A stretch of DNA of 63,266 nt, filler included, from Stramenopiles sp. TOSAG23-6 (lineage: Eukaryota), in assembly GCA_900128565.1 (NCBI GenBank). It is 10 parts of 10 records of this genome, joined end to end, with 100 filler letters (N's around TTAATTAATTAA, not from the genome) between each part and the next. Parts side by side here need not be neighbours in the genome. Positions count along the whole stretch, not along the records: positions 31,705 to 37,937 come from LT636741.1; 9 more parts are not named here. One strand, written 5' to 3'. Shown here piece by piece: positions 12,509 through 53,300 of the stretch. The notes under the pieces are model-generated. The model was given only the letters and a program-made list of their open reading frames with translations. It was not told the DNA's origin and searched no databases. Position 1 is the first letter of the stretch. Each line of letters opens with the position of its first letter. Both the position numbers and the translations under genes were made by a program.

Positions 12509-12693
12509 GTATGTTTTATTTTATTTTTTTACCGAAAAAAAAAAATCGAATTTTTTTTTTCGTACGAAATTTTGTACCTAACAAATTTTCAAANNNNNNN
12601 NNNNNNNNNNNNNNNNNNNNNNNNNNNNNNNNNNNNNTTAATTAATTAANNNNNNNNNNNNNNNNNNNNNNNNNNNNNNNNNNNNNNNNNNNN

Positions 12694-18584: not shown

Positions 18585-19139
18585 AATAATATTATCTAAA
18601 AGATTTCAGCTACTTCTATGAATTCAATATCTGTGCACTTGCTGTAAGGGGGCAGAGGTAGTATAGGAACCCTGAAATAATACTGTAATACGTATTTCCA
18701 AGGGAATTCCCTTGGTATTTCGATTTGAGCGCGCGCAAGAATTATTTTGCCATTTGTTTAAAAGAAAAACGTTTGAACCGTTGAAAACCGAAACGAAAAA
18801 AAAAATCAATAAAAAAAAAATTCAATATTTTATCGGAGTTTTTCGGGCTCTTGATCTCTGGAGATCAGTGCTCGCTCGAGTTCATCACGATTCACAAAGT
18901 CAAAATGAGGTAAGGTAGTAAGTTACTAGGNNNNNNNNNNNNNNNNNNNNNNNNNNNNNNNNNNNNNNNNNNNNTTAATTAATTAANNNNNNNNNNNNNN
19001 NNNNNNNNNNNNNNNNNNNNNNNNNNNNNNTTTTGGAAAAATATTTCAAAAAAAATCTAAAAAAATTGTTAGGTACAAAATTTACAATAAAACAAATTCG
19101 ATTTTTTTTTTACCGGAAAAAAAAAAAAATAAAACATAC

Positions 19140-22100
19140 ATGATATCATTGGTCAATAATCTTAATAATGTTTCATATTTTTGAGATATTTTTGATGTTG
19201 CACAGGAAAGAAATAACTTTTCAATGGCCATGAGAGATTGGTATACTTTTGCATCTTTTTGAGATTGAGTACTTATATCATCATCATCCATATTTTCAAC
19301 ATCATTTACATTTAACTCAGTATCTACTTCAGTGAGTAAAATATCTTTAATACCAAAGATGGATGTCTGTACATATTTGGTACAAGATAATAATGCGTCA
19401 GGTCTAGCATCGATCAATATACCAATTAATTGGGCAGCAGCAAGTCTCAATTTATCTTGTTGAGATGAAATCCATTTCATTACAAATTCAATCATTTCTT
19501 CTGCTTTTTGAAGAGAACACTTTCTCAGTAATAAATTCAAGGTATTTGATATCATACGCCGACAATCTGAGTTATGTATTTTGGAAAAATATTTCAAACA
19601 AAATCTAAAAAATATTGTTAGGTACAAATTTTTTTTGAAAAAAATAAATTCGATTTTTTTTTTTTTTCGGTAAAAAAAAAAAAAAATAAATAAAACATAC
19701 ATTATCATTGACAAGTCGTAAAACAAGAGGAAGAAACAATAACCCTGATTGATCATCAATTAGTTCTTTTGGAAACTTTTGAATAATTTTACCTAGAAAT
19801 TTTAATAATGATAGTCGACCTGTATCGTAGGGAAATGATAAATTTTTCATTACATGATCAATATGATTTTGTAATCGTTTCTTGCCTAATGGAAATAAAA
19901 TTAAGTATAACATCAAAACTTCAGAACATGAAGAACGGATTATATCATGCTGTGACGTCACCATACAATCCTGTAACTGTTCCATCAGAGTATACATCTC
20001 AACCGTCACAGTTTTTCTCTTGACTAGAGTTTTAATTAACTCAAAAGATGCTTTTTGTTTTTTTGGTATTTGAATACCCGACGATAGTAAATCAATCAAA
20101 CACGATATTTGATTTGGGGTCAAAGTATAGTCTGAATGATGGCGTAGTAGAACACTAAGTGTGTGAAAACAACCTTGTGCCAAGTCAGCTTCTGCTGCTG
20201 CACCAAAATGGCCCAATACAGATAATAATCTGTTTACAATTCGAGGCATGAAAGACGGTAATGAAGGTAATTTCCACGAACTTAGTAATGACAGACATTT
20301 CATACTGAGCAACATTAATTGATCATTTTTTGTTCGATCACAACAACGTGTTAATAATCCAAGAATTGGATCCAATAGAGATAAATGTGATACATCATTT
20401 CGCTGTAATTTACCTTTTTTAAGAAAGGAATATAAAGCTAATAAGGCATACTCTACAACAACATACTCATTTGCAGTAGCATAAGAGTGGTCGATGCCAC
20501 GTGTCGTTAAACATTTACCACCAGTCAACCTTGGCTCGGGCAATACTTCATAATTATCAGCTTTATGACCATTACTTAATTTCATCTTTGAAGTTGTATC
20601 ATCTGTATTGACTAACCATTTTTCGACTTCTACATTACCTTTTCCAGATTCAATTTTCATTCGACGTTTTGTTGTTGCTTTTGTATACCCAGATACAATT
20701 TTTTGTAAATAAATCATTAGATGAGGAATTTCTACACTATTATTTTGTACTAATCCTAAAGTAGCTCTTCGAAAAAGTTCTCTTATTTTGTTAATCGTTT
20801 TTTTGTCAACAGTTTCATTTAATTTTTCGCGAAGTGGTGTAAGAACAACATGAACGGCATCTGAAGGAAGAAATTGCATTGAAGTGAATAAAATTTCAAA
20901 TGTGTCAAAACTTTTACACGTTTTGACTTCACGCATTTGACGATGAGCATTTGAAACACCTGAATCAATTTCCTTTTGAATCGATGCCTGGCCAAAAATA
21001 TCTTCTAACACAGTAGCTAATACAGTAGGAATTATTCGCCATATTACCGAGTGATCCATTGGAACTTCTTTCGCGTCAAGAGCCTCATAAAACTCTTCAG
21101 GATGGAGTTTACTTTCAGAATCATCATCACCACGTTCCTGACGCCATTTCAGTCTTTGATCTTTCCGAAATTGTTGTTGTTCATTCATTTCAATAATACT
21201 TTTCTTCATTAATTCAGTCTCAGGTTGAAGTAAAGATTTATCATAGAGATTACGAAGTACTGCATGTAGCGTATATCCCATAATGTGTACCATATAACCC
21301 TTATTCAAAGCATCATGTAATTGTTCAACAATCATTGGAAGCTTTTGCAAACCAATCAAACACGAAATTTCCACCAACACATTTCGTGCTTCATCTCTTG
21401 CGTGTTGTGCTTTAACACGTAACACACGGCATACAGATCTTGTTAATTGAGATATCGATGGATCACATATTGCACTTGGTAATTGCATAAGTAAACGAGT
21501 GAGTGCTAATGCAATCGGTGTTCGTACAGTTACTTGCGTCAAATCACTATTATGTCCCTCACCTCGACTTACTACACGGCGTATTAATTGCTTTTGTAAT
21601 GGGGGGAGTAGACGAACTTGGATTGCACGTAATATAGATTGAATGGATACACATTTTGATGTTCCAATAGTAGCATCTGTTTCTGTTTCAATCGTAGCAT
21701 CGAAATCACTTTTGATATTTTTAGGTACAAAAACATGAAAGCCGTCAAGCATCGCACATATTGCACGAATCAAAACCTTTTCAGAATTTGGTTTTCTTGG
21801 AACTTCTTCAATTAATTTAGTAATTTCTGAAATATATTTAGACCAACTCAAACGCTGAGATAAAGGTGTTAACACTCGAATTGCTTCCTCTCTAAGATCT
21901 GCTTTTATTGAAGTTTCACTTTCGCGAACTTTGGCTAATACTAAAGGTAACAAAATGTGTACCACAGTGAATGGTTTCAAGTCAAGTGAACCTAATGAGC
22001 CTTTATCCCCTGCTTGAACACGTAATCTCTGTAAAGCCTTCACCTGTCTATGAGCTTGAACATGAGTCATATTCAAGAAAAAATCCTGTTCAGGATCTAT

Positions 22101-25100
22101 ATGCTGCAACTGCTTTAAATCAGTATGCATTGCAGGATGACAATCAGCAGGAAAATGAGACACAACATCTGACAATAACAACAACATTGAATGGCGAACA
22201 ATAGGCTTTACAAATTGACCTGAAAATGTTGCTCTAATACCTGGCATCACTGTAGTTAGCATTAATCTATTACAATGAAAATTGGATACTTTTGTAGATA
22301 AAAACTTGACAGACAAACTCAGCATCCGATGAGCATATTGGCGAATAAGCATTTCATCATTATGTATATCAAACATACACTGACTTAATATAACTTGCAG
22401 GAGGATTTGTTGATTGTTTTCTCGCATGCCAATTTCACATAATTCAATTATTGTATCTGGAATCTCAATTTTCTTTTCTTTGCATTTAGAAATCTTTTTT
22501 AATGTTTTTGAATTTTCATTAATAGGTTTTTTTATATGACTATTTTCTTGATTTTGTTGAATTGATGTTTTCGTCAATATGTCATACACTTTACCACGCT
22601 TTACAAAATTAAGTTCTTCTAGACCTTCCCAGCTATTTAGATCAGAAATGAATGAAGAAACAGTAGTAAACCAAGTCATATCAGATCTTTTTCCAATAGT
22701 AGAAAATACATCCACTAATAATTGACGTGTTACACGATCGTCATATCCACACATACTTGCAGCAGGACCAAGTAATGTCGCAAACAAGCCAATGTGTGAC
22801 ATGATTACACATTTTGGAACAATAGACACTAAGGATAGCAAGACTCGTAAAACATTGTTTTTGATTGCTATAGTTGCACGAGCAGCAGGGCGTAAAAAGG
22901 GTACAATTAGTTTTACTAATGGGGCAGCAATTGTCGAGGATTTGATATACTTACTAATCTGTGATAAGATTGCTAATGCACGAGGAGCAAAAGGTGACTT
23001 CACAATTCGTTTATCACTTCCACCGAAACGGCTTGTGAAACATGTCAATATTTTTGGAATATATGAACGTAATAAACCTTCTGTACTTGTTGCTTTTGAC
23101 GTTTGAGGTAGTAAATGTTCTACAATACTCAATACAGCTGAAACGACGCTTTCACTGACATCTTCACAGAGACAATCTAATGCTGCACTTAAAGGGCATA
23201 TTTCATTTTGAACATTTTCATCTATTTTTTCATCGTCAACGTTTTCATCTACATTTTTATACTTATACACCAACATATTCGAGACGTCCTCATGCTGACT
23301 AGCCAAAACTTGAATAAAGTTCAATAATGCTGAAGGTTTAGTAGCCCCAATGAGTGAAGAAGACAAATTTTCAACACTACTTTGTAATGCATTCATATAT
23401 ATTTTGTACCAAAATGACCAATTGTAATCCGGATAGGTTTCAATAATAATCGACATTACATTGATACATAAAGAACGCAATTGTCTTCCATCTCTACCAG
23501 TAATATTTGAACTAATGCATTGTAGACCAATGATTGCTGGTAACACAACATGTAATTTTGGTCGAAATTTTTGTCCAAATTGTTTTACCATATCAATACA
23601 TAAATTAAGAAATCCAATACGCCTTGCACGACTTACACCATTGTTATATACATTTGCTTGTGCTACTTCAATTACACTTGACACACGGTCTTCAACATCT
23701 TTGACGCTGACAGGAAATGAAACGTTATCACAAGTATCAAATACAAATAGGTTTTCTTCTTTCGATGAAGATAAATTCGAAATTCGTACAGGATAAAAAG
23801 GACGAATGGCATGACTTGCAATAAATCCCAACTCTTTCGGTTTTAATGTAGACAAATACGCGAGAACTGCATTACGACGATTTGATACACTTTCCTTCGC
23901 TTTCATTTTTCGTTCAATAATTCTACCCATCAACAACCGAACAATGATTGGAATAATTCCATTGCGATATATATCTGGTATACTTCCACACAAACCTGCT
24001 TCATTTTCTGGTTCAAGTTTTAAAGTTCGCATTTCATCTTTCCACGTGTCACGATTAGATAGTCTTAGTAATGCAGAACTATATTGATTTAAACTACCTT
24101 GTTTAAAAGCTAAAACACATTTTAAAGCAGAGGAAGATATTTCAGATTTACCTAATAAAATTACACAAGATCTATGTAATCTCCTGGATTCATAATTACC
24201 CTTTAAATTTTGAAAAGTCGAAAATAGTTCTAGAAATGCAGCAATGCGTTCATTAGTGCTTTTTATGCTTACACCATTATGTACATCATTATTATCCTCA
24301 TCATCATCATCAGAAGTCTTAGCAAATGTTTTGTTCATCATTTGGTTTGACATAAACGTTTTAATTATTTCTTTTTCTGAAATTTCATTTTGTGTAGAAA
24401 TTGATAACAATTCCCAAGCATCAGGATCATTTTGAAATGATATATTACTATATTCACAAGCAATGCATCGAAAAAATAACGAAATTAAAAATTTGTTTTT
24501 AGATTCTGCTAAAGTTGGCATGCCTTGTAGTAGTTGTAATAGTAAAGACAATTTTTTACTAGGACCCGTAGGATCAGTATCAACAAACACGAAACCAGCG
24601 ACTGACGATGAACGTAAAGCACGATTAAATGAAGAAAATAATGAAATCACATTTTTCGTGTTTTTCGTATTGAATATTTCATCTTTTGATCTCTGACCAG
24701 TTAGTTTTGCACGTAAATTTCGACGTTTTCGATTCTCATGTTCAACAAGTTGTTTCGTTTTAACTGTGTGATCCTGATTTATTTGATTCATATTACATAA
24801 AATGTCAAGATTTTCAAGATTTTCAAGATTTTCTCTTTCTTTTTGTACATCCATTGAAGACTGACCATACCCACCACCCAATTCCTGCTCAAATATAGCA
24901 CGTGTCAATTGACGAGCAGCAAGCGGCCACAATAGGCTAGTTACTTTTGGTGTATTCGATACACTTGAAAATATACTTTTTATAGTTGGCCAAATTCGAT
25001 TGTATCTGACATTAAATAGACCAATAAAATGTTGTAATGCAAAACGAACGTATATACGAGGCAAGCGACTGTTCTGCAAATACACTTTAATATGTTCCAT

Positions 25101-25267
25101 TCTTGCTCTTACGTCACGATCGCTTTCAAAATCTCTTGATTTTCTTTCGATGAATAATAATTGTTCAAATAAAAGACATTCTGTCCCAGGAATATTTCGT
25201 GTTGTACTATTTTCAGAATTATTTTCAGAATTATTTTCAGAATTATTTTCAGAATTATTTTCAGAAT
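19140..25267 (-). CDS. UTP20: UTP20/DRIM SSU processome component, partial at both ends; intron 19574-19700 and next donor at 19139
   Basis: HEAT-repeat protein with DPEQDFFLNMTHVQAHRQVKAL, KGYMVHIMGYTLH, MREVK..KSFD and FPLGKKRL...NLSFPYDTGR. Confidence 0.93.
19574..19700 (-). other. GT-AT intron
   Basis: GAT AAT|GTATGT...TGTACCTAAC (43 nt)...AAAATACAT|AAC TCA gives LVNDN|NSDCRRM. Confidence 0.85.
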
Positions 25268-25389: not shown

Positions 25390-26405
25390 ACGTATTGGTG
25401 GGACACTTGATGATGCTGCAGGTGAAGCATTTGATAAAGTATCACGAATTTTAGGATTACCTCAACGAATTGAAAGATTAATGAATAAAGATAAAACATT
25501 TTTACAAAACAATACAGAAAAGAAAACACGAAATATAAAAATGCATGGTGGTGCTTTAGTTGAACTTGCATCAAAGAAAGCAAAAAAGTTGAAGAAGAAA
25601 ATGTATGAATCAAATAGTGAATCATACTCATTTCCAATTCCTATGCGTGGATCAAATCGATGGAAATTGGACTTTTCATTCTCTGGGCTTAAAACAGCAG
25701 TTTTGTATGCAATGCGTAATGAAATCTCTCGAGCTCAATCAAAATTAGAAAACGATGAAATTTCCATCATTAAAAATAATAGTACTAATAATGTTAAGGC
25801 TAAAGCTCAATCTGAAATTGAATCATTACTTCAAGTAAATGACAACGATGCATTTGAAATTGCTGAGGCATTTCAAAAATCAGCTGTAAAACATATCATA
25901 GAGAAAACTGAGGGGGCTTTAGACCATGCAGAGAAATTGTTGATAGATGGAATGAATAACCCTAACCCTACCCCTATGTACGTTTTTTTTTCAAATTCGA
26001 AATTATTTTTTCGTACGAAATTTTGTACCTAACAAATTTAAGTGTTTTTTTGATAACCCTAAGAATAATAACATACAAAAAAAAACTGAGAATATAGAAA
26101 AGTGTATATATAATAATAGTAAAAAGTTAAACAAACTTGTTGTGTGTGGTGGTGTGGCGTCAAATTCTTATTTACGAGACCAAATTGTGAAAATGACAAA
26201 ACAAAAAAATATCAATGTAATTTATCCTCCGCCTAAATTATGTACAGATAATGGTGTTATGATTGCATGGGCTGCCTGTGAGCAGTATAATACATTTCGT
26301 CATAGAAAACACCTAAATGGTGAAAATCCGAACGAGTTTGTGTCTCAAAAAGATAACCCTAACTCTGCTGACCTTACTATACGTGCAAGATGGCCTTTGG
26401 GATGA
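25390..26405 (+). CDS. OSGEPL1: t6A synthase TsaD/Qri7 (OSGEPL1), 5' partial; GT-AT intron 25978-26074
   Basis: [31 protein letters not shown] and [12 protein letters not shown]. The upstream intron ends AAAATACAT at 25389. Confidence 0.92.
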
Positions 26406-30644: not shown

Positions 30645-31539
30645 ATGTCAGAGTTCATTATCGACAAACATTACTATGCTCTTTGTGCTTTAGTAACGGC
30701 TCTGATTCAGTATTCATGTTTCTTCATCGCGTATAACTGTAGCTTTGATACAATAACTGATTTCGCGGGTAGTATAAACTTTGTAGTGATTGCTCTTCTG
30801 ACGCTTTTCCTCGGTGACTATTATTATGACAGACAAGTTGTCCTAACAGGTATGTTATTGGCTGCACGTTTAGAACTTGCTATATTTTTGTTATATAGAG
30901 TTGTAAAAAGAAAGAAAGATGCACGTTTTGACAGAATACGTGAAAATCTCATCCCCTTCTTAGTCTTTTGGACTTTTCAAATCATTTGGATATATGTAGT
31001 AGCACTACCAGTAACAAGAATAAACTCAGCTCAACCTAATCCTGCTATTTGTGGATGGGATTATTTAGGTTGGACAATGTGGGGTATCGGCTTTTTCGTA
31101 CAGACTCATAGTGACTTTCAGAAGCTTTCTTTTCGGTCGAATCCTGCCAACAAAAACTTTGCCTGTGACACTGGATTTTGGAAATATTCACGGCATCCAA
31201 ACTACTTTGGAGAAATCCTCATGTGGACAGGAATATTCTTATCGACTCTACCAGTTTGGCGTATTGATGGTGAGAAGGATGGTTGGATTACCATGTATGT
31301 TTTCAAAATTGAATGTAAAATATATTTTTTTCTGTACCAAAATTTGTACCTAACAAAAAATTTAAAAAAAACAAAAAAATTTTCACAATACAGGCTATCA
31401 CCAATTTTTACCATTATACTTTTACTCTTTGTTTCAGGTGTCCCAACGGCTGAAGGGAAAAACTTGAAAAGATTTTATGAAAATGGGAATTCTATTCGCG
31501 AAAGGTATATGAGTTATAGATCACGCACACCTACGATAT
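30645..31539 (+). CDS. DUF1295 / steroid 5-alpha-reductase-like membrane protein, 3' partial; GT-AG family intron 31295-31393, next donor at 31540
   Basis: TDFAGS.NF, KDARFD, DFQK and WKYSRHPNYFGE. Junction ACC AT|GTATGT...CAATACAG|G CTA. Confidence 0.9.
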
Positions 31540-31704
31540 GTATGTTTTATTTTTTTTTTTTAACAAAAAATCGAATTTTTTTTTCGTACGAAATTTTGTA
31601 CCTANNNNNNNNNNNNNNNNNNNNNNNNNNNNNNNNNNNNNNNNNNNNTTAATTAATTAANNNNNNNNNNNNNNNNNNNNNNNNNNNNNNNNNNNNNNNN
31701 NNNN

Positions 31705-33926
31705 AACTATTTTCAGCATTCAAGTGTTGGCGTAGTATTATTGATGCTGTGATTGAAAAAGAAAATCATGAAGTCGAAGTTCAACAGATTACAGATTTGT
31801 ACGAAAAGTCAATGAAGCAGAATAGTGGTGTTCTTAGCATGAGTAAATTTGTTGCTAGAATGCTATTAGGTGCATTGTATCGCGCGTTTCATAAATGGAA
31901 GAGTTCTTTTATAATTTATTCGTTAGAACACAAAAGCGAAGTTTATGTACAAGCTTTATTAGATGCAAAACATGAAAAGTTCTCGACTAAAACGAAAGCA
32001 TATGCGACTAAGGTTGTCTACAGATTTCTCTTGCGAAAACTTTGGGTTTACTTTGAAGTTTGGCGAATTTCATCAGATAACGAATCAAGAAGAATAAAAG
32101 CGTATAGAGAAGCTACAATCCTAGTTCGAAGGTCGTTACTTCGAATGCGATACCAAACTTTGCAAAAGGGGTGGAATAAATGGCAATGTACGTTTATTAT
32201 CAATCACACAACAGAGCAAAAAGATCGATTGTGGGATTTGCTGGAGAATATGCAACATTCACTAGAGGACCATCAAAAGATTGTTGGTTTACGAGTTATT
32301 TCACGATGTATGGAGAATAAACTGTCAAGTGTATTTATTCACTGGTGGAAAACTACATTAGAATTGATTTGTGAAGATAACATTCTAAAGGATAAAACCA
32401 AAGCATCAGCAATATCAATTAAAAGATGCCTTTGTCGCTTTTGGCTTGCAAAGCTTGGAGATGCATTCAACGTGTGGTATATTACAGCATTTCATATTCG
32501 GATAAAACTGGAACACGATGAAAAACTTGATTCAATGAAACTTGGAAGCCAAAGAAAACAATTTAGAGTCGCACGCTCTTTAGTTTTGCGAATAATTCGC
32601 CGCAACACGGAGGCTGCATTTCAGAGGTGGCGACATGCTTTAACATTGAATGATCTGCTACATAAGATGTCTAAAATGGATGAAACATTTCAAGAGAGGC
32701 ACAGAAAACACAATATTGATACGAAGCAATCCAGCATGAAGAGAATTATTCTTCGGCTACATTATTCAAAATTAGCATTAGCTATGTGTCACTGGAATGC
32801 TAAAGCAAAAGACATTTCATACAAAAACAATATGCTTAATAGAGCTACTAAAGTATTACATTTTTCACTGAAACGATTTTGTCGGAAAATTCTCATGACT
32901 GCCTTTCACAAGTGGATAACAGGATATCATTATGAAACACTTAGCGATGCTGTAGTAAATTATAACATGATTCAAATTAATCATGGTGTTGTCATTACGG
33001 AGTGTGTGCTACGACGATGGATCAGAAGGAGTTTATTAAAAGCACTAGATCATTGGCACAGGCAAACCGAAATTATTTGTGTACATAATGATCGAAAGCA
33101 AACCGCAACTAGGGTTATGTACTGTATATTTGGGCGTTGGATTCAATATGTGTTAAGAAACGCATGGGCAGATTGGTTACGACACATTCATGTGTGGAAA
33201 ATGCGAAAAGTACATATGGTGGAAATGTCAAAGTTAATATCATCTCACTTAGAAGATACCAAACGACAAGAAGAAAGATCTCACTTAGAAGATACCAAAC
33301 GACAAGAGGAAATGTCAAAGTTAATATCATCTCACTTAGAAGATACCAAACGACAAGAAGAAAGTAAAAAATCAGAATTCACAATACAATCCAGAAAGCA
33401 CACACATATGGTTTTACTACATGCTGATAGGATTTTAAATCGTTGGAGAAATAGATTACGTACCAATTCCTGGAACAAATGGAAAAATTTTCTTAAGTGG
33501 CAGAATGTACATATGTTATTATCAGAACTCTCTTTGGAGCGCTACTTTCATGGTTTGACAAATCTGAATACCAGTAATGTTGTACATAGATGGTATAGAC
33601 ATTGCTTAGTAAAGGGCTTGATGTCATTCAGAACAGTAAGTGGCTTTCATAAAAAAAGAGAAACATCTAAGGAGTGTACGAACAATAGCACTGAAAGGCA
33701 GAAAAAACAAAAAGATACATATAATATAGCTACGAACAATGTACGCAGATCCAACCGTACTCTTCTAGCACACCGTTTTATCATTCGCTGCTTGTCACTA
33801 CCAGAAAGTCTCGTTTGGGAACGATGGCTCGCTGTCACGGGAATTCGCCAAAATTTGAACAAGGACCAATATCAAGTACAACATAAATCTAAAATGCCTG
33901 AAGTACCAGATACAATATCACTTTAA
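31705..33926 (+). CDS. Trp-repeat helical protein (Sfi1-like centrin-binding repeats), 5' partial
   Basis: Recurrent L..AF..W motifs (LYRAFHKW, LQKGWNKW, LGDAFNVW, LMTAFHKW). Internal in-frame duplication at 33221-33360. Confidence 0.6.
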
Positions 33927-34485
33927 AATAATTATACTATATTGTGTGAATGAGTATTACTAAATTGAATGATACAAAGTTACTCAGTTGAAATTTACTA
34001 GTAAAAAAAAAATGAAAAGTGTTCATTTTTATATATAAATATAAATTCAAAAAAAATACTTTACTTTTTTTGTTCAAATGTAATACTGGTACGATAAATT
34101 ACTATATAATAGAACTAACAGAACCATCACTGCGACCTCAACAAAACGAGTTATTAAAACGAGTTATTAATGAAACGACAAGTGTTGCGAACCCACTTTA
34201 ACGTACCGTGACACTGTTTGATTAATTGGAGTTGCTTTACATTTATGATCATGATACTTTTCCCAGAAACATTTTCCGATGGTCAGTTCACAATAATATC
34301 GAAGAAAACGAAGAAAACGCCACGTGTGCAATCTATAATAAATCCATCAAGTTAAAATTTTAAATTTTTGACCCCTTCATTCAAGGCTTCATCAAGAAAT
34401 CCTGGGACCAGAACGAGCCGAAAGAGAAATGCAATGAATAATATCATATCACATTGAGCTACATTGAAAGTAATAATTTAGTAGA

Positions 34486-36528
34486 ATGTCAACTCGAGAC
34501 CCCCACATGATGCGCGAAGCATTGCAATTTCTATCGAATATTCCAATGGGCGGCGAGCATTTGCCTTCTGGTCGCCGTAACCCACGCTCACCTCCTGGTT
34601 CTAGTTTGTCAAAAAGAATGGCCTTTTCTAGTTCAACAGAAGTACCAAATGAAGGCTATGGTCGAAATAATAATCGTAATGGCATATTAATGGTTCAAGG
34701 TGATAAGACATATGTTCATGTTGGACTTCACGACATCCTACAACGTGGGCCAGATATCGAAGGGACAGCAAGGCGACAATGGGAAGATGCTCTTGTTCGC
34801 CAAGGCTTCATGAATGGTCGAGTATTTCTTTCAGCAAGTCGTGGTTACCCTACATGTGTATTTTCGATGAAACCATATGCTACTAATTCAGCAAAAGTAC
34901 TTGAAAAGAAGAAAAAGAGGAAAAAAATACCTTCTCGAAAAACTCAAGATTTCGATTCTGGTATTGATAGTGTTGATGAAGAAATTGTTGTTGAAGGAAT
35001 ATCATATAAACATTTGCTACACTCTACATGGGGAAAATATTGTAGCTCTGAGCGTGATCAAAAAGAAGANCATCCAGCACCCCCACCACAATATATCCCT
35101 GGTTATCTAGATGATCCTGAAATTAGACATACGAAGCATCGGACTGTAATGTTCATGCCACCTGCGTGTACGTTTTTTTCCNACACTTTTTTTTTTTAAT
35201 ATTTTTTTTAATACGAAATTTTGTACCTAACAAATTTTAGTTTTTTTTTTTAAATATTTTTTCAAAATACATGTTATATACACACTGTGATACCTTATTC
35301 CAGACCTAAAAAATTACAAGAGGAACTTAATGCCCAGTTTCATCAAAAACATCCCCATTTAGACCCCCAATTAACTCTCACCAGTGTACGTCGAGCAAAG
35401 GAGATTTGTTGTAAGATGTATGTTTTTATCGTTTATTTTTTGTACGAAATATTTTTAATATTTTTTTTTTTTTACTATTTTTTTTTTAAATATTTTTTTT
35501 ACATGTTTTCATCGTTTTTTTATACGAAATATTTTTAATGATTTTTTTTTTTAAAGTATTTTTTTTACATGTTTTCATCATTTCCTGTACAATTTCAATG
35601 TCGAATTTACTTTTTTTCATTGAAAATTTTAATTTTGGACATTTTTTGTTAAATTTCAAAGTTTTGAAATATTTTTTCACAATATTTGTTACATTTTTGT
35701 CTTTCTAACAATAAAAACACAGACGATGATGGAGATGGGGTAGATAGAGACGACAAACCTGTTTTAGAGGTATCAACTGTAGCTCTTGCATTCGTATGTT
35801 GTCTATTTCAATTTAATTTTTTTTTTCCGTCAAAAATATTTCATACCTATCAAGTTTTTTTGAAAATATTTTTTCACAATATATGTATGTTTTTTTTCAT
35901 TTTTTTTTCAATTTCGAATTTAATTTTTTTTTTTTGATTTTTTCGTACGAAATTTCGTACCTAACAAATTATACAAAAAAAAAATATTTTTTCACAATAT
36001 ATGTATACTGGGAAAAATTAATTCTTCGCTCAGTCTGTACATTTTCAAGTATGGAAAATTCGTTTTTCGTGTCAAAAGATAATCATGTGTGTTTTCAAGA
36101 TTGAGTTTCATTTTTTTCATACAAAAGTTTGTACCTTACAAAACAGTGTACAAAAAAAAAATATATTTTTCCAAAATACATGTTTTTTTTATTAATTTTT
36201 TTTTTTTGAAAATTTCAGACCTAACAAAACCATTTCAAAAAAAAAATATTTTCCCAAAATACATTGTTTAATTCTTGCAGTTTGTCTTTTACTAGCACAC
36301 AAGTTCAATCAACCCCAACCGGTGGCAAGTTCAGAAATTCAGAAATTATTAGTATTAGTTGTAGAGAAACTAGGTAGGATAAGCCCATCTGCGTTTAATA
36401 AGAAAAATATTTTTCAAAATGAGACTTTAGTCTTTGCAGCTCTTGATTTTAGTCTTCATATACAAAAAAATGAATTTTTACCTCACATTTCACTCATTAG
36501 CGAATGTATGAATATGATTGATAAATAG
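34486..36528 (+). CDS. CABLES-like cyclin-domain protein; introns 35168-35272, 35418-35687, 35794-36002 and 36087-36264
   Basis: ALQFLSNI, YLDDPE..TKHRTV, YIHTVIPY..PKKL.EELN.QF..KHP..LTLT, STVALAF|VYWEKL, CLLLAHKF and ETLVFAALDFSL. Confidence 0.85.
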
Positions 36529-36648
36529 ATTTTAAAGATAAATAAATGAAAATTGAGAATTTATACAACAAATTTTAAAACAATTCGTAATTTCTAGAGA
36601 GAATCGCCTTTTATTTTTGTTGAAAATTTTTGTGTCTATTGAGTGGGT

Positions 36649-37066
36649 TTATTCTACTAACTCGTCTCCTTGTTGTGGAGCTATAGTTGAAAGAGATTTT
36701 GACAATTTNTTTGCATTTGAATGTTTCTTTTTCCAGAACGAACGTATAGCAATTACAGCGCCACCAACAACAATGCATAGCACTCCGACCACAGGCAGCA
36801 CAATCTTCCGCGTTTCTCTATCATCATCATCTGAGTTATCTGGTCGTAATCTATTCAACGTGGTTCGAATGCAAGGCGATAACCTCCGACCTCCATCTCC
36901 TCTGGAGGCATGCGTTATCAATATTGGCGACTATATCACGCAACTTTTGAAGTTCTTGGCGCAAATCGGCCAATTCTGTTGCACCAATGCCATCCATTCC
37001 CTTCTTCGAATAGTGCAATACGCAATGAAGCATCTGAGCATATTTTGGTATTTTAACATTATACAA
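36649..37066 (-). CDS. Possible small tail-anchored membrane protein split over two overlapping frames
   Basis: A coiled-coil-like ORF (37066-36851) overlaps a TM-containing ORF (36921-36649). The structure is unresolved. Confidence 0.3.
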
Positions 37067-37323
37067 CTGCGTAGTAGGTCGTGGACGTTTATATCATTCC
37101 TTTATAAAACTTTCTTTTCTTCCTTTTGCACTTCTAAAGACCTGTTTTGGCGCAGCGTTCGTTCCTCTGGCAAAATTTACCGGAATTGACCGCTCCATTT
37201 TTCCTTTCGAAGCAGCCGTTACCCGGTACCCATTTTTCAATATTGGAATTGGAATATTGGAATAATACAATTCACTATTACTATTACTATTAGTATNTAC
37301 AAAGTATCATGAGGAAAGGCAAG

Positions 37324-37405
37324 ATAGTTGTGGCCGAGTGGTTAAGGCGAGACATTAGAAATGTCTTGGGCTATGCCCGCGCAGGTTCGAATCCTGTCAA
37401 CTGCG
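37324..37405 (+). tRNA. tRNA-Ser(AGA)
   Basis: A box TGGCCGAGTGG, anticodon arm AGACA-TTAGAAA-TGTCT, long variable arm, GGTTCGAATCC, discriminator G and a downstream oligo-T tract. Length 82 nt. Confidence 0.93.
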
Positions 37406-37720
37406 AATTGTTTTTTTTTCTAAATAATTTTTAAAAATATGAATTTTTTTGAGACCTCGAGCGTGTACCCGGTAACGAAGAATCGATCGATAAAATACCA
37501 TTAAATTTTCTAGACAAAAATACAGACAAATAATACGTATAGACTTACATTCGTCAGCAACCAGTGTTTTCCACGTTGGACAGATTCAAAGAAAAAAGAC
37601 AATTGTAAAAAGTTAACTTTTTACAATTTTAAATTATATTTTTGAGAAAAATAAAATATTAGTAATATTTTATTTAAAACGTGTTTGTGTGTTGTTGTAG
37701 TAAACATTGAAGCGTTTATT

Positions 37721-37883
37721 TTATTTAAAACGTGTTTGTGTGTTGTTGTAGTAAACATTGAAGCGTTCATTGTTTGGTAATACTTCATTTTGTACATCAT
37801 CCAAGGCAATACTGCACTTGTGCTCGTATATGGGAATGCGCCCAAAAAACTCATCTTTGAGCTCATCACCCGATGCACCAGTT
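37721..37883 (-). CDS. Terminal exon of an unidentified gene
   Basis: Follows a family intron end (TACCTAAC...AAAATACAT at 37884) at the contig edge. Frame uncertain. Confidence 0.45.
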
Positions 37884-38126
37884 ATGTATTTTGGAAAAAT
37901 ATTTGAAAAAAAAAAACTAAAATTTGTTAGGTACAAANNNNNNNNNNNNNNNNNNNNNNNNNNNNNNNNNNNNNNNNNNNNTTAATTAATTAANNNNNNN
38001 NNNNNNNNNNNNNNNNNNNNNNNNNNNNNNNNNNNNNTTTTGGAAAAATATTTCAAAAAAAATTCGTTAGGTACAAAATTTCGTATGAAAAATAAATTAG
38101 AAATTGAAAAAAAAAATAAAACATAC

Positions 38127-41786: not shown

Positions 41787-42524
41787 ATGTCGCAATTAGA
41801 ATTTCGTGCATTTTTTCATACTTGTTCAACTGCGGTGTGTTTTATTTTTGTTCAATTTCGATTTGTTTTTTTTGACGAAATTTCGTACCTAACAAATTTT
41901 ACAAAAAAACATATTTTTTCACAATATATGTAATGTATATAATACCATTGTTTGTCACATTACTATTTGGACTACTAGTTTATCACTTCAATTTTGCTAG
42001 AGAGANTCAATTGTCTATGAAATATGATGATATCGTCGCATCGAAAACATCGAATAATAATTCGACTTGTANGTTTTCAAAATATTTTTCAAAATATTTT
42101 TACCTATATTTTTTNACTATGAAAATTCCAAACCTAAGAAATTATTTTACTACAGAAAATATTTTTTCACCACCCATATTACTCCAACAACTCCAGCCAT
42201 TCAGAGATATCCCAGAGTATGCTTTCATCAGATGNTTTTGTAGATGATTCAATGAAACATCCTTCATTTCATTTTATACTAAAAAAGGTAATGTTCTGGA
42301 GCAGTCATTCGAATAAAATGGCAAATTCTCAATCCTTCGAAGAAATTACTGAAAATGAAATTTTTGTTATGGAAAGAAATGCAAAGAAATTGATTTCCCT
42401 ATTGGCTATACCTATGAATATTTATCAATCAATATTTGGTTTTGCTCTTTATTGGTGTATTGCAAATTCTGCNATGCTTTCTTTTTTTGGTGTCGTTTTT
42501 TATTTGTATTCGAATAAAAATTGA
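41787..42524 (+). CDS. Hypothetical membrane protein; GT-AT intron 41835-41929; low-quality sequence
   Basis: ATG at 41787, then ACT GCG|GTGTGT...TACCTAAC...CACAATATAT|GTA ATG in frame. Contains Ns and a frame break near 42235. Confidence 0.45.
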
Positions 42525-44370: not shown

Positions 44371-47300
44371 TTTTGGAAAAATATTTCAAAAAAAATCTAA
44401 AAAAATTGTTAGGTACAAAATTTACAATAAAACAAATTCGATTTTTTTTTTACCGGAAAAAAAAAAAAATAAAACATACATGATATCATTGGTCAATAAT
44501 CTTAATAATGTTTCATATTTTTGAGATATTTTTGATGTTGCACAGGAAAGAAATAACTTTTCAATGGCCATGAGAGATTGGTATACTTTTGCATCTTTTT
44601 GAGATTGAGTACTTATATCATCATCATCCATATTTTCAACATCATTTACATTTAACTCAGTATCTACTTCAGTGAGTAAAATATCTTTAATACCAAAGAT
44701 GGATGTCTGTACATATTTGGTACAAGATAATAATGCGTCAGGTCTAGCATCGATCAATATACCAATTAATTGGGCAGCAGCAAGTCTCAATTTATCTTGT
44801 TGAGATGAAATCCATTTCATTACAAATTCAATCATTTCTTCTGCTTTTTGAAGAGAACACTTTCTCAGTAATAAATTCAAGGTATTTGATATCATACGCC
44901 GACAATCTGAGTTATGTATTTTGGAAAAATATTTCAAACAAAATCTAAAAAATATTGTTAGGTACAAATTTTTTTTGAAAAAAATAAATTCGATTTTTTT
45001 TTTTTTTCGGTAAAAAAAAAAAAAAATAAATAAAACATACATTATCATTGACAAGTCGTAAAACAAGAGGAAGAAACAATAACCCTGATTGATCATCAAT
45101 TAGTTCTTTTGGAAACTTTTGAATAATTTTACCTAGAAATTTTAATAATGATAGTCGACCTGTATCGTAGGGAAATGATAAATTTTTCATTACATGATCA
45201 ATATGATTTTGTAATCGTTTCTTGCCTAATGGAAATAAAATTAAGTATAACATCAAAACTTCAGAACATGAAGAACGGATTATATCATGCTGTGACGTCA
45301 CCATACAATCCTGTAACTGTTCCATCAGAGTATACATCTCAACCGTCACAGTTTTTCTCTTGACTAGAGTTTTAATTAACTCAAAAGATGCTTTTTGTTT
45401 TTTTGGTATTTGAATACCCGACGATAGTAAATCAATCAAACACGATATTTGATTTGGGGTCAAAGTATAGTCTGAATGATGGCGTAGTAGAACACTAAGT
45501 GTGTGAAAACAACCTTGTGCCAAGTCAGCTTCTGCTGCTGCACCAAAATGGCCCAATACAGATAATAATCTGTTTACAATTCGAGGCATGAAAGACGGTA
45601 ATGAAGGTAATTTCCACGAACTTAGTAATGACAGACATTTCATACTGAGCAACATTAATTGATCATTTTTTGTTCGATCACAACAACGTGTTAATAATCC
45701 AAGAATTGGATCCAATAGAGATAAATGTGATACATCATTTCGCTGTAATTTACCTTTTTTAAGAAAGGAATATAAAGCTAATAAGGCATACTCTACAACA
45801 ACATACTCATTTGCAGTAGCATAAGAGTGGTCGATGCCACGTGTCGTTAAACATTTACCACCAGTCAACCTTGGCTCGGGCAATACTTCATAATTATCAG
45901 CTTTATGACCATTACTTAATTTCATCTTTGAAGTTGTATCATCTGTATTGACTAACCATTTTTCGACTTCTACATTACCTTTTCCAGATTCAATTTTCAT
46001 TCGACGTTTTGTTGTTGCTTTTGTATACCCAGATACAATTTTTTGTAAATAAATCATTAGATGAGGAATTTCTACACTATTATTTTGTACTAATCCTAAA
46101 GTAGCTCTTCGAAAAAGTTCTCTTATTTTGTTAATCGTTTTTTTGTCAACAGTTTCATTTAATTTTTCGCGAAGTGGTGTAAGAACAACATGAACGGCAT
46201 CTGAAGGAAGAAATTGCATTGAAGTGAATAAAATTTCAAATGTGTCAAAACTTTTACACGTTTTGACTTCACGCATTTGACGATGAGCATTTGAAACACC
46301 TGAATCAATTTCCTTTTGAATCGATGCCTGGCCAAAAATATCTTCTAACACAGTAGCTAATACAGTAGGAATTATTCGCCATATTACCGAGTGATCCATT
46401 GGAACTTCTTTCGCGTCAAGAGCCTCATAAAACTCTTCAGGATGGAGTTTACTTTCAGAATCATCATCACCACGTTCCTGACGCCATTTCAGTCTTTGAT
46501 CTTTCCGAAATTGTTGTTGTTCATTCATTTCAATAATACTTTTCTTCATTAATTCAGTCTCAGGTTGAAGTAAAGATTTATCATAGAGATTACGAAGTAC
46601 TGCATGTAGCGTATATCCCATAATGTGTACCATATAACCCTTATTCAAAGCATCATGTAATTGTTCAACAATCATTGGAAGCTTTTGCAAACCAATCAAA
46701 CACGAAATTTCCACCAACACATTTCGTGCTTCATCTCTTGCGTGTTGTGCTTTAACACGTAACACACGGCATACAGATCTTGTTAATTGAGATATCGATG
46801 GATCACATATTGCACTTGGTAATTGCATAAGTAAACGAGTGAGTGCTAATGCAATCGGTGTTCGTACAGTTACTTGCGTCAAATCACTATTATGTCCCTC
46901 ACCTCGACTTACTACACGGCGTATTAATTGCTTTTGTAATGGGGGGAGTAGACGAACTTGGATTGCACGTAATATAGATTGAATGGATACACATTTTGAT
47001 GTTCCAATAGTAGCATCTGTTTCTGTTTCAATCGTAGCATCGAAATCACTTTTGATATTTTTAGGTACAAAAACATGAAAGCCGTCAAGCATCGCACATA
47101 TTGCACGAATCAAAACCTTTTCAGAATTTGGTTTTCTTGGAACTTCTTCAATTAATTTAGTAATTTCTGAAATATATTTAGACCAACTCAAACGCTGAGA
47201 TAAAGGTGTTAACACTCGAATTGCTTCCTCTCTAAGATCTGCTTTTATTGAAGTTTCACTTTCGCGAACTTTGGCTAATACTAAAGGTAACAAAATGTGT

Positions 47301-50300
47301 ACCACAGTGAATGGTTTCAAGTCAAGTGAACCTAATGAGCCTTTATCCCCTGCTTGAACACGTAATCTCTGTAAAGCCTTCACCTGTCTATGAGCTTGAA
47401 CATGAGTCATATTCAAGAAAAAATCCTGTTCAGGATCTATATGCTGCAACTGCTTTAAATCAGTATGCATTGCAGGATGACAATCAGCAGGAAAATGAGA
47501 CACAACATCTGACAATAACAACAACATTGAATGGCGAACAATAGGCTTTACAAATTGACCTGAAAATGTTGCTCTAATACCTGGCATCACTGTAGTTAGC
47601 ATTAATCTATTACAATGAAAATTGGATACTTTTGTAGATAAAAACTTGACAGACAAACTCAGCATCCGATGAGCATATTGGCGAATAAGCATTTCATCAT
47701 TATGTATATCAAACATACACTGACTTAATATAACTTGCAGGAGGATTTGTTGATTGTTTTCTCGCATGCCAATTTCACATAATTCAATTATTGTATCTGG
47801 AATCTCAATTTTCTTTTCTTTGCATTTAGAAATCTTTTTTAATGTTTTTGAATTTTCATTAATAGGTTTTTTTATATGACTATTTTCTTGATTTTGTTGA
47901 ATTGATGTTTTCGTCAATATGTCATACACTTTACCACGCTTTACAAAATTAAGTTCTTCTAGACCTTCCCAGCTATTTAGATCAGAAATGAATGAAGAAA
48001 CAGTAGTAAACCAAGTCATATCAGATCTTTTTCCAATAGTAGAAAATACATCCACTAATAATTGACGTGTTACACGATCGTCATATCCACACATACTTGC
48101 AGCAGGACCAAGTAATGTCGCAAACAAGCCAATGTGTGACATGATTACACATTTTGGAACAATAGACACTAAGGATAGCAAGACTCGTAAAACATTGTTT
48201 TTGATTGCTATAGTTGCACGAGCAGCAGGGCGTAAAAAGGGTACAATTAGTTTTACTAATGGGGCAGCAATTGTCGAGGATTTGATATACTTACTAATCT
48301 GTGATAAGATTGCTAATGCACGAGGAGCAAAAGGTGACTTCACAATTCGTTTATCACTTCCACCGAAACGGCTTGTGAAACATGTCAATATTTTTGGAAT
48401 ATATGAACGTAATAAACCTTCTGTACTTGTTGCTTTTGACGTTTGAGGTAGTAAATGTTCTACAATACTCAATACAGCTGAAACGACGCTTTCACTGACA
48501 TCTTCACAGAGACAATCTAATGCTGCACTTAAAGGGCATATTTCATTTTGAACATTTTCATCTATTTTTTCATCGTCAACGTTTTCATCTACATTTTTAT
48601 ACTTATACACCAACATATTCGAGACGTCCTCATGCTGACTAGCCAAAACTTGAATAAAGTTCAATAATGCTGAAGGTTTAGTAGCCCCAATGAGTGAAGA
48701 AGACAAATTTTCAACACTACTTTGTAATGCATTCATATATATTTTGTACCAAAATGACCAATTGTAATCCGGATAGGTTTCAATAATAATCGACATTACA
48801 TTGATACATAAAGAACGCAATTGTCTTCCATCTCTACCAGTAATATTTGAACTAATGCATTGTAGACCAATGATTGCTGGTAACACAACATGTAATTTTG
48901 GTCGAAATTTTTGTCCAAATTGTTTTACCATATCAATACATAAATTAAGAAATCCAATACGCCTTGCACGACTTACACCATTGTTATATACATTTGCTTG
49001 TGCTACTTCAATTACACTTGACACACGGTCTTCAACATCTTTGACGCTGACAGGAAATGAAACGTTATCACAAGTATCAAATACAAATAGGTTTTCTTCT
49101 TTCGATGAAGATAAATTCGAAATTCGTACAGGATAAAAAGGACGAATGGCATGACTTGCAATAAATCCCAACTCTTTCGGTTTTAATGTAGACAAATACG
49201 CGAGAACTGCATTACGACGATTTGATACACTTTCCTTCGCTTTCATTTTTCGTTCAATAATTCTACCCATCAACAACCGAACAATGATTGGAATAATTCC
49301 ATTGCGATATATATCTGGTATACTTCCACACAAACCTGCTTCATTTTCTGGTTCAAGTTTTAAAGTTCGCATTTCATCTTTCCACGTGTCACGATTAGAT
49401 AGTCTTAGTAATGCAGAACTATATTGATTTAAACTACCTTGTTTAAAAGCTAAAACACATTTTAAAGCAGAGGAAGATATTTCAGATTTACCTAATAAAA
49501 TTACACAAGATCTATGTAATCTCCTGGATTCATAATTACCCTTTAAATTTTGAAAAGTCGAAAATAGTTCTAGAAATGCAGCAATGCGTTCATTAGTGCT
49601 TTTTATGCTTACACCATTATGTACATCATTATTATCCTCATCATCATCATCAGAAGTCTTAGCAAATGTTTTGTTCATCATTTGGTTTGACATAAACGTT
49701 TTAATTATTTCTTTTTCTGAAATTTCATTTTGTGTAGAAATTGATAACAATTCCCAAGCATCAGGATCATTTTGAAATGATATATTACTATATTCACAAG
49801 CAATGCATCGAAAAAATAACGAAATTAAAAATTTGTTTTTAGATTCTGCTAAAGTTGGCATGCCTTGTAGTAGTTGTAATAGTAAAGACAATTTTTTACT
49901 AGGACCCGTAGGATCAGTATCAACAAACACGAAACCAGCGACTGACGATGAACGTAAAGCACGATTAAATGAAGAAAATAATGAAATCACATTTTTCGTG
50001 TTTTTCGTATTGAATATTTCATCTTTTGATCTCTGACCAGTTAGTTTTGCACGTAAATTTCGACGTTTTCGATTCTCATGTTCAACAAGTTGTTTCGTTT
50101 TAACTGTGTGATCCTGATTTATTTGATTCATATTACATAAAATGTCAAGATTTTCAAGATTTTCAAGATTTTCTCTTTCTTTTTGTACATCCATTGAAGA
50201 CTGACCATACCCACCACCCAATTCCTGCTCAAATATAGCACGTGTCAATTGACGAGCAGCAAGCGGCCACAATAGGCTAGTTACTTTTGGTGTATTCGAT

Positions 50301-53300
50301 ACACTTGAAAATATACTTTTTATAGTTGGCCAAATTCGATTGTATCTGACATTAAATAGACCAATAAAATGTTGTAATGCAAAACGAACGTATATACGAG
50401 GCAAGCGACTGTTCTGCAAATACACTTTAATATGTTCCATTCTTGCTCTTACGTCACGATCGCTTTCAAAATCTCTTGATTTTCTTTCGATGAATAATAA
50501 TTGTTCAAATAAAAGACATTCTGTCCCAGGAATATTTCGTGTTGTACTATTTTCAGAATTATTTTCAGAATTATTTTCAGAATTATTTTCAGAATTATTT
50601 TCNNNNNNNNNNNNNNNNNNNNNNNNNNNNNNNNNNNNNNNNNNNNTTAATTAATTAANNNNNNNNNNNNNNNNNNNNNNNNNNNNNNNNNNNNNNNNNN
50701 NNTTTTGGAAAAATATTTCAAAAAAAATCTAAAAAAATTGTTAGGTACAAAATTTACAATAAAACAAATTCGATTTTTTTTTTACCGGAAAAAAAAAAAA
50801 ATAAAACATACATGATATCATTGGTCAATAATCTTAATAATGTTTCATATTTTTGAGATATTTTTGATGTTGCACAGGAAAGAAATAACTTTTCAATGGC
50901 CATGAGAGATTGGTATACTTTTGCATCTTTTTGAGATTGAGTACTTATATCATCATCATCCATATTTTCAACATCATTTACATTTAACTCAGTATCTACT
51001 TCAGTGAGTAAAATATCTTTAATACCAAAGATGGATGTCTGTACATATTTGGTACAAGATAATAATGCGTCAGGTCTAGCATCGATCAATATACCAATTA
51101 ATTGGGCAGCAGCAAGTCTCAATTTATCTTGTTGAGATGAAATCCATTTCATTACAAATTCAATCATTTCTTCTGCTTTTTGAAGAGAACACTTTCTCAG
51201 TAATAAATTCAAGGTATTTGATATCATACGCCGACAATCTGAGTTATGTATTTTGGAAAAATATTTCAAACAAAATCTAAAAAATATTGTTAGGTACAAA
51301 TTTTTTTTGAAAAAAATAAATTCGATTTTTTTTTTTTTTCGGTAAAAAAAAAAAAAAATAAATAAAACATACATTATCATTGACAAGTCGTAAAACAAGA
51401 GGAAGAAACAATAACCCTGATTGATCATCAATTAGTTCTTTTGGAAACTTTTGAATAATTTTACCTAGAAATTTTAATAATGATAGTCGACCTGTATCGT
51501 AGGGAAATGATAAATTTTTCATTACATGATCAATATGATTTTGTAATCGTTTCTTGCCTAATGGAAATAAAATTAAGTATAACATCAAAACTTCAGAACA
51601 TGAAGAACGGATTATATCATGCTGTGACGTCACCATACAATCCTGTAACTGTTCCATCAGAGTATACATCTCAACCGTCACAGTTTTTCTCTTGACTAGA
51701 GTTTTAATTAACTCAAAAGATGCTTTTTGTTTTTTTGGTATTTGAATACCCGACGATAGTAAATCAATCAAACACGATATTTGATTTGGGGTCAAAGTAT
51801 AGTCTGAATGATGGCGTAGTAGAACACTAAGTGTGTGAAAACAACCTTGTGCCAAGTCAGCTTCTGCTGCTGCACCAAAATGGCCCAATACAGATAATAA
51901 TCTGTTTACAATTCGAGGCATGAAAGACGGTAATGAAGGTAATTTCCACGAACTTAGTAATGACAGACATTTCATACTGAGCAACATTAATTGATCATTT
52001 TTTGTTCGATCACAACAACGTGTTAATAATCCAAGAATTGGATCCAATAGAGATAAATGTGATACATCATTTCGCTGTAATTTACCTTTTTTAAGAAAGG
52101 AATATAAAGCTAATAAGGCATACTCTACAACAACATACTCATTTGCAGTAGCATAAGAGTGGTCGATGCCACGTGTCGTTAAACATTTACCACCAGTCAA
52201 CCTTGGCTCGGGCAATACTTCATAATTATCAGCTTTATGACCATTACTTAATTTCATCTTTGAAGTTGTATCATCTGTATTGACTAACCATTTTTCGACT
52301 TCTACATTACCTTTTCCAGATTCAATTTTCATTCGACGTTTTGTTGTTGCTTTTGTATACCCAGATACAATTTTTTGTAAATAAATCATTAGATGAGGAA
52401 TTTCTACACTATTATTTTGTACTAATCCTAAAGTAGCTCTTCGAAAAAGTTCTCTTATTTTGTTAATCGTTTTTTTGTCAACAGTTTCATTTAATTTTTC
52501 GCGAAGTGGTGTAAGAACAACATGAACGGCATCTGAAGGAAGAAATTGCATTGAAGTGAATAAAATTTCAAATGTGTCAAAACTTTTACACGTTTTGACT
52601 TCACGCATTTGACGATGAGCATTTGAAACACCTGAATCAATTTCCTTTTGAATCGATGCCTGGCCAAAAATATCTTCTAACACAGTAGCTAATACAGTAG
52701 GAATTATTCGCCATATTACCGAGTGATCCATTGGAACTTCTTTCGCGTCAAGAGCCTCATAAAACTCTTCAGGATGGAGTTTACTTTCAGAATCATCATC
52801 ACCACGTTCCTGACGCCATTTCAGTCTTTGATCTTTCCGAAATTGTTGTTGTTCATTCATTTCAATAATACTTTTCTTCATTAATTCAGTCTCAGGTTGA
52901 AGTAAAGATTTATCATAGAGATTACGAAGTACTGCATGTAGCGTATATCCCATAATGTGTACCATATAACCCTTATTCAAAGCATCATGTAATTGTTCAA
53001 CAATCATTGGAAGCTTTTGCAAACCAATCAAACACGAAATTTCCACCAACACATTTCGTGCTTCATCTCTTGCGTGTTGTGCTTTAACACGTAACACACG
53101 GCATACAGATCTTGTTAATTGAGATATCGATGGATCACATATTGCACTTGGTAATTGCATAAGTAAACGAGTGAGTGCTAATGCAATCGGTGTTCGTACA
53201 GTTACTTGCGTCAAATCACTATTATGTCCCTCACCTCGACTTACTACACGGCGTATTAATTGCTTTTGTAATGGGGGGAGTAGACGAACTTGGATTGCAC

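Follow-up and report, generated by a model that had tools for sequence, protein, structure and literature searches.

How two mobile introns come to lie back to back in one gene, with no exon between them, and by what route the spliceosome then removes them, are the questions raised by a locus in a 63,266-base stretch of the genome of Stramenopiles sp. TOSAG23-6 (assembly GCA_900128565.1), hereafter called the window. Introners are the best-documented source of new introns; their pile-up and the spliceosome's handling of the result are little described. The segment at 35794-36002, located in a gene for a cyclin-box protein on the plus strand (approximately 34486 to 36528), is composed of two consecutive copies of a family of short introns, most of which end in AT. 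On balance, we lean towards reading it as a compound spliceosomal intron formed by two separately inserted family copies and removed mainly in one step.

Anatomy of the pair and its removal from the message

The sequence across the locus reads ..GCATTC|GTATGTTGTC..TACCTATC..CACAATATAT|GTATGTTTTT..TACCTAAC..CACAATATAT|GTATACTGG, with both units head-to-tail and in the family pattern GTATGT..TACCTAAC..AAAATACAT. A family profile, built from 9 copies whose removal restores long open frames and used in an nhmmer search, matches unit 1 at 35795-35883 (model positions 2-102, E 7.9e-5) and unit 2 at 35885-36001 (model positions 1-102, E 6.5e-14); the matched units abut, no base lying between them. 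The anatomy proposed in the first-pass annotation, back-to-back units with a zero-length exon, is thus borne out. Its description of these units as two complete but diverged copies is right as to divergence (about 80% column identity, with three indels of 16, 7, and 4 nucleotides (nt)) and fails for the completeness of unit 1, in which the branch-site A is replaced by T (35850). Unit 2 has TACCTAAC at 35958-35965, with the branch A at 35964, and ends in CACAATATAT at 35993-36002. The terminal 22 nt are identical in both units and have only these two exact matches in the window. The internal junction agrees with the true 3' junction from -22 to +4 and then continues as GTATGT, and at 35884/35885 a 3' splice site is immediately followed by a 5' splice site, the arrangement seen at the zero-nucleotide exons of recursive splicing. 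Unit 2 also contains a perfect 16-nt palindrome, GTACGAAATTTCGTAC (35945-35960), which in many family copies extends over the first four bases of the branch-site motif GTACCTAAC; it may form a hairpin or serve the mobile element as a protein binding site.

The host protein, which we take to be CABLES-like, was characterized by homology. The only Pfam domain match is Cyclin_N in the last exon (E 0.005, 36283-36525), and a HMMER (phmmer) search with exon 1 found 25 relatives (P0001-P0025, top identity 41%), the only named ones being "Cyclin N-terminal domain-containing protein" from the oomycetes Aphanomyces astaci and Pythium insidiosum. A stramenopile host is therefore probable. No transcript-derived copy of the host protein was found in the representative library, where the exon 1 search gave nothing above 41% identity, and the last-exon query (87 residues) had no candidate among transcript-derived proteins. 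Six of the relatives (P0001, P0002, P0003, P0004, P0006, and P0010) were compared with the locus by tblastn. The motif ..L(E/D)(V/I)(S/A)T(V/L)AL(A/S).. was aligned at 35764-35793, VY(F/W)EKL(I/V)(L/M) from 36003, and ..AVCLLLA(F/H)KFN.. from 36268 onward; the upstream ..TxALA.. piece was seen in five of the six homologues and VYxEKL from 36003 in all six. Where both flanks were aligned, the homologues have an unbroken ALA-x-VYFEKL, colinear with ALAF|VYWEKL of the host gene. Their ungapped ..STVALA-x-VYxEKL.. requires that precisely these 209 nt, from GT to AT, be taken out of the mRNA.

The reading frame is in agreement with this removal. Only when both units are taken out does the frame stay open to the natural stop (139 codons); retention of unit 1, unit 2, or both leads to a stop 57, 13, or 48 codons past exon 3, respectively. 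The GTAT present at both borders lets the cut slide by up to 4 bases, an AG end being found at none of these positions, and, going downstream, the first AG falls within VYWEKLILRS, which is conserved coding sequence. The best reading of the excised segment is GT...AT. For the gap, a canonical GT-AG pair was rejected, since homology requires both ..ALAF and VYWEKLIL... In exon 4, 11 residues (SVCTFSSMENS, 36027-36059) occur in no aligned homologue; this insertion is in frame, contains no stop, and is partially covered by RNA.

The RNA and independent DNA evidence consists of assembled contigs only, which cannot reveal splicing intermediates; it comes from a poly-A seawater metatranscriptome (X13), an RNA library (X6), and an independent seawater DNA run (X3). 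A 210-nt contig of X13 matches 36055-36083 and then 36262-36440 with 0 mismatches, and, allowing for a 3-nt shared "cat", lacks the next intron of the same gene, 36087-36264 (GTGTGT...ATACAT). As this sister intron is also made of two family units, its absence shows that the AT end of the family is a real splice end in RNA and that a two-unit compound can be removed whole via its outer signals. The acceptor-like "ttgcag" at 36277-36282 is exonic according to the same RNA, in agreement with the tblastn matches from 36268. A contig of X6 (35543-35754) is unspliced past both candidate ends of intron 2 and may be pre-mRNA or DNA. In the independent DNA, two X3 contigs (35601-35847 and 35818-35878) contain exon 3 and unit 1, the latter with its own tail, and a third (35977-36169) contains the unit-2-specific A-run, the 3' end, and exon 4. 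This is a partial confirmation of the doubled structure, which the independent DNA supports but does not prove. DNA elimination of the type of the ciliate internal eliminated sequences was rejected on inference from the presence of the units in metagenome DNA, the spliceosomal signals, and the RNA contig without the sister intron. The features of the host gene are collected in Table 1.

Table 1. Exons, introns, and intron units of the cyclin-box protein gene, in positions of the window
Feature	Position	Strand	Evidence and remarks
Exon 1, large, N-terminal	34486..35167	+	phmmer relatives
Intron 1	35168..35272	+	Single family copy GTACGT..ATACAT; open reading frame continuity; bridged by homologues (..RTVM..|..IPY..)
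Intron 2 region	35411..35722	+	Three partial family units; frame analysis
Exon 3	35723..35793	+	Ends ..STVALAF; start uncertain (35688 or 35723); tblastn homologues, frame analysis
Unit 1	35794..35884	+	91 nt; 5' GTATGT; degenerate branch site; end CACAATATAT; T-run/GAAA tail
Unit 1 branch-site remnant TACCTATC	35844..35851	+	T at 35850 in place of the family branch A
Internal junction AT/GT, ..CACAATATAT/GTATGTTTT..	35884..35885	+	Zero-length "exon"
Unit 2	35885..36002	+	118 nt; full copy; 5' GTATGT; A-run tail
Exon 4 VYWEKLILRSVCTFSSMENSFFVSKDNH	36003..36086	+	Translation, homologues; RNA contig over 36055-36083
Next intron (two-unit)	36087..36264	+	GTGTGT..ATACAT; missing from the poly-A RNA contig
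Last exon CLILAVCLLLAHKF...	36265..36528	+	C-terminal part of the cyclin box, stop codon; translation, Pfam, homologues

The GT...AT family and other compound introns of the window

The window consists of ten contigs of about 6.2 kb each, linked by N44-TTAATTAATTAA-N44. Pieces 4, 8, 9, and 10 are identical over 6232 bases (19031-25267, 44371-50602, 50703-56934, and 57035-63266), so that the unique sequence amounts to about 43.7 kb (1-44270); the compound-intron locus is in piece 6 (31705-37937). The GC content varies between about 0.25 and 0.38, and eukaryotic nuclear genes for UTP20, GRASP55/65, a DEAD-box helicase, an M24 peptidase, and an MFS transporter are present. In the protein atlas, the M24 peptidase matched only broad eukaryote clusters. 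With up to 2 mismatches allowed, the window contains 32 occurrences of the family core TTCGTACCTAACAAA, where 0.16 would be expected, and the profile has 42 matches at E <= 1 in 44 kb, corresponding to about 25-30 distinct elements, which sit in the genes for UTP20, GRASP55/65, the cyclin-box protein, and others.

Exact removal of at least 10 family copies gives continuous open reading frames. Among the single copies, removal of 11684-11781 restores frames of 162/118 codons, that of 19700-19574 (minus strand) 200/163 codons, and that of 38292-38195 (minus strand) a 163/32-codon frame. The family is introner-like: many similar copies are located in unrelated genes, and the copies checked behave as introns, exact removal restoring the frame or the mRNA. 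The canonical GT-AG (or GC-AG) ends of described introner families are seen here in only 3 copies out of the 18 mapped within the window, on which all flank and end statistics rest. The 3' end is AT in 13 of these copies, AG in 3, AA in 1, and TT in 1, and the last three bases are CAT or TAT (YAY) in 13/18; YAY precedes the 5' site in 9/18. The 5' ends are GTAYGT in 16/18 copies, with GTGTGT found twice and one defective internal TGACGT. AT stands directly before the 5' end in 11/18 copies, compared with an AT dinucleotide frequency of 0.099. Single copies are 85-127 nt long, a range that includes both units of the pair, and the element termini GTAT..ATAC span 4 nt only. The three AG-ending copies (4038-4146 on the minus strand, 6120-6228, and 31295-31393) all have AT at the 5' flank and look as if the 3' AT had mutated to canonical AG after insertion.

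Several contigs end inside family elements (12509-12591, 19031-19138, 31540-31604, 37885-37937, and 38038-38126), which suggests that the assembler broke at the family repeat; gene models that reach a contig end will break off inside an intron. A degenerate 19-letter pattern of the head-to-tail junction, used to scan the metagenome, hit at least 115 loci and proved too unspecific for AT-rich DNA: 0 of the 115 listed loci carry the element (nhmmer, E <= 1e-3), and TACCTAA lies near one of them, evidently by chance. Another short sequence, the telomere-like motif TTAGGGTTAGGG / CCCTAACCCTA, is found 14 times with up to 1 mismatch (0.23 expected), at 2887-2915, 4384, 5438, 6585, 7860-7894, 8096-8112, 12292-12327, 12956, and 25960-25976, often straight after ..CAT and in some cases with two copies inside 25 nt; either a further short repeat or a regulatory box is conceivable.

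Doubling of family sequence is also seen in other introns. The sister intron is divided into 36087-36181 and 36182-36264 (the latter matching model positions 20-102, E 6.8e-6), and its second unit begins with GTTTTT and has no usable 5' splice site. Intron 2 can be read in frame in two ways, as 35411-35722 (canonical GTAAGA..CACAG, enclosing the units) or as 35418-35687 (GTATGT..ATATTT); its units 35422-35504 and 35505-35571 are identical in 62/64 positions, and both are without a branch site. In the 204-nt family intron 4425-4628 (minus strand), a core of about 60 nt including TACCTAAC is triplicated internally; the 5' site and the AT end occur once each, and taking the intron out recovers a 31/118-codon frame. 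The 169-nt compound intron 10162-10330 has its 5' part and branch site doubled; the first branch site is TACCTAAT, the second 5' site is defective (GTGACGT), and without this intron the frame is again open over 155/59 codons. The internal 5' sites of these compounds are GTTTTT (36182), GTTTTC (35505 and 35572), GTGACG (10247), or absent (4628-4425); in each intron only the outermost 5' site is good, and the last branch site is intact. Among the compound introns checked (four others), an intact internal GTATGT occurs only in the pair at 35794-36002.

Origin and splicing route of the pair

Pairwise global alignments of the 18 units place the best partner of unit 2 in another contig (41835-41929, 90/95 identical positions), with unit 1 outside its six best; unit 2 and unit 1 agree in 76/88 positions, with about 30 nt of gaps in addition. 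The matches of unit 1 are nearly equal in alignment score: 38292-38195 (45.7), 41835-41929 (44.2), and unit 2 (43.9). The tails, from the branch site to the end, are of two types, unit 1 having a T-run followed by GAAA(A)TATTTTT and unit 2 an A-run followed by TATTTTTT. The pair probably arose by two separate insertions rather than by local duplication, with the later element entering the AT at the end of the earlier one. Each insertion would create a 2-bp AT target duplication, the second copy of which would serve as the 3' splice dinucleotide, giving the architecture AT|GT...AC-AT|. With such an architecture, a resident element offers its own terminal AT as a potential target, and a second element landing there would produce ...AT|GTATGT..., head-to-tail and with no exon between. 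Re-insertion at the AT end of an existing element, as put forward in the first-pass annotation, gains modest support from the differing tail subtypes, the closer similarity of unit 2 to the copy in another contig, and the AT architecture.

Local tandem duplication, in which a single resident unit would have been doubled via GTAT microhomology and then diverged, appears rather unlikely. It would account for the identical 22-nt ends, the sole exact pair in the window, and for the GTAT on either side of the unit, and local duplication is evident both in the host gene, in the nearly identical units of intron 2, and in the internal 60-nt triplication at 4628-4425. However, unit 2 is far nearer to the copy in another contig than to unit 1, and the tail subtypes differ (S1 vs. 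S2). Moreover, the pair was not called by Tandem Repeats Finder, which reported there only short T-rich repeats, plus a 66-nt tandem repeat in intron 2 (35480-35617).

The same mRNA would result from any of three splicing routes: removal in a single step (35794 to 36002), true recursion with unit 1 leaving first, or removal of unit 2 before unit 1. We give a slight preference to removal in one step; a mixture of routes, or recursion at the internal junction that the first-pass annotation likened to a recursive splice site, is also conceivable. The 5' site of unit 1 (35794) would pair with the branch A (35964) and the AT end (36002) of unit 2, and the branch site of unit 1 would be decaying because, as we propose, it is no longer needed in this route. 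Both two-step routes need a working branch site in unit 1, and since its A is lost, one step is favoured; a neighbouring A might substitute for it. Use of the outer signals in one step predicts the complementary decay that is seen in the other compound introns. The intact GTATGT of unit 2 fits a young unit 2, which is 95% identical to another copy, and 35794-36002 may be the only place in the window where two-step removal could occur.

Obligate two-step removal, in which unit 1 would be spliced out first to the internal AT, regenerating TTC|GTATGT for the subsequent removal of unit 2, or in which the order would be reversed, seems doubtful. The match of the internal junction to the true 3' junction, followed by the consensus GTATGT, is what such recursion would use, and each unit has the normal length of a family intron. 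Against it, the branch A of unit 1 is replaced by T, the sister intron 36087-36264 is fully removed in RNA although it has no usable internal 5' site, and internal 5' sites are likewise lost in the other compound introns. A bolder and still more tentative proposal is that the element preferentially re-inserts in its own AT terminus and so builds arrays with AT|GTATGT recursive sites, handled by an AT-accepting spliceosome. If true, this would be a self-extending intron system, of which the pair is the minimal case.

Two further explanations have little probability. An assembly artefact, in which two alleles or copies were merged or an amplification chimera formed over a real single-unit locus, is very unlikely: the assembly is indeed fragmented at family repeats, with contig ends inside elements, and the window contains four identical contigs, but the seawater metagenome has exon 3 with unit-1-specific sequence to 35878 and also joins the unit-2-specific A-run and end to exon 4, and other compound introns exist in the window, one of them removed whole in RNA. 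Least probable of all is an RNA-mediated origin, by reverse splicing of an excised family intron beside the resident one and copying into DNA, which would agree with the lack of a visible target duplication at the pair and of the AT flank in 7/18 copies, but not with AT before 11/18 copies or with the short GTAT..ATAC termini, which suit a DNA element better, and no reverse transcriptase turned up, although no search aimed at one was made.

Several observations weigh against a compound intron of two separate insertions removed mainly in one step. No target duplication is seen at this copy, since the unit pair is preceded by TC instead of AT. The contrast in similarity is weak (12/88 vs. 5/95 mismatches), the sequences being short and of low complexity and the copies few. 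The shared identical 22-nt end, rare in the window, could mean common descent or gene conversion, and the GTAT with which both the unit and exon 4 (GTATAC) begin is a microhomology that could have mediated tandem duplication. The segment 35878-35977 is bridged by no independent contig among those listed for X3. The joint 35793|36003 is covered by no RNA among the contigs listed from X6, X8, and X13, so that the removal of 35794-36002 rests on homology and the order of splicing on inference. Finally, the perfect internal 5' site of unit 2 makes two-step removal mechanically possible.

Relation to known systems and significance

Recursive splicing through zero-nucleotide exons is known from the ratchet points of long Drosophila introns and from abutting introns of fungi. 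As in those sites, a 3' splice site here abuts a 5' splice site with no exon between. Known recursive sites are AG|GT and serve the stepwise removal of very long introns or of introns hosting small nucleolar RNAs, whereas the units described here are of about 100 nt, their junction is AT|GT, and the upstream branch site is damaged.

A close parallel in the literature is provided by the introners of Micromonas pusilla CCMP1545, Aureococcus, and other protists, as described in passages of PMC9860276, PMC12130899, and PMC4815162. Like them, the family comprises many near-identical short introns in unrelated genes that carry their own splice signals, with ends that recall those of transposons and what may be a target duplication reused as a splice site. 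Introners usually end in AG; AT is the usual end here. Compound introns are also more in evidence: the pair and at least four others within the window, compared with only three noted genome-wide for Micromonas in the same passages. The word "tandem" is absent from the main text of PMC9860276 and PMC12130899, and a literature search found, supplements apart, no description of GT-AT introners in stramenopiles and no head-to-tail introner pairs described as recursive-splice candidates.

An AT end has been described in fritillariid larvaceans. According to passages of PMC13326754, 3' AT is the commonest intron end in Fritillaria (44% in F. pellucida and 34% in F. borealis), and duplicated, divergent U2AF subunits recognize the non-canonical ends. 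YAY as the last three bases, often also before the 5' site, is a feature shared with the family described here. However, the main Fritillaria classes in those passages start with AG (AG/AC and AG/AT), whereas our family has GTAYGT and a strong TACCTAAC branch site; moreover, Fritillaria is a tunicate host, and the named homologues of the present host gene are only from oomycetes. The abstract and section 21 of PMC13326754 make no mention of head-to-tail pairs.

The stwintrons of Hypoxylaceae, as presented in passages of PMC9024468 and PMC8469720, also combine two introns, some in repeated "sister" families, and resemble the present case in having two introns within one intervening sequence. 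In those passages, the inner intron of a stwintron interrupts a splice signal of the outer one, making two steps obligatory; here the units lie end to end, and none of the six signals is interrupted. The non-canonical introners of Amoebophrya, to which passages of PMC7789003 attribute variable ends and hairpins, differ from this family in both respects. In the non-conventional introns of Amoebophrya or euglenids, structure joins the ends, and no strong end-joining structure was found here by RNA folding (z -1.96 for the whole compound; -1.37, -2.07, -0.06, and -1.65 for single units).

The family has practical consequences for annotation. Gene finders that require AG will mis-annotate all these genes, for example by taking the "ttgcag" of the last exon. 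For the biology of such elements, the pair together with three other compound or multi-unit introns of the same gene region forms a compact natural test case for several questions: whether the end of a mobile intron is a target for the element itself; whether redundant internal signals undergo complementary decay, the upstream unit keeping the 5' site and the downstream unit keeping the branch site and 3' end; and how an AT-accepting spliceosome decides which of two identical candidate 3' sites, separated by 118 nt, to use. Overall, the remarkable part is the family and its AT acceptor, to which the pair adds a natural experiment on self-targeting and 3'-site choice.

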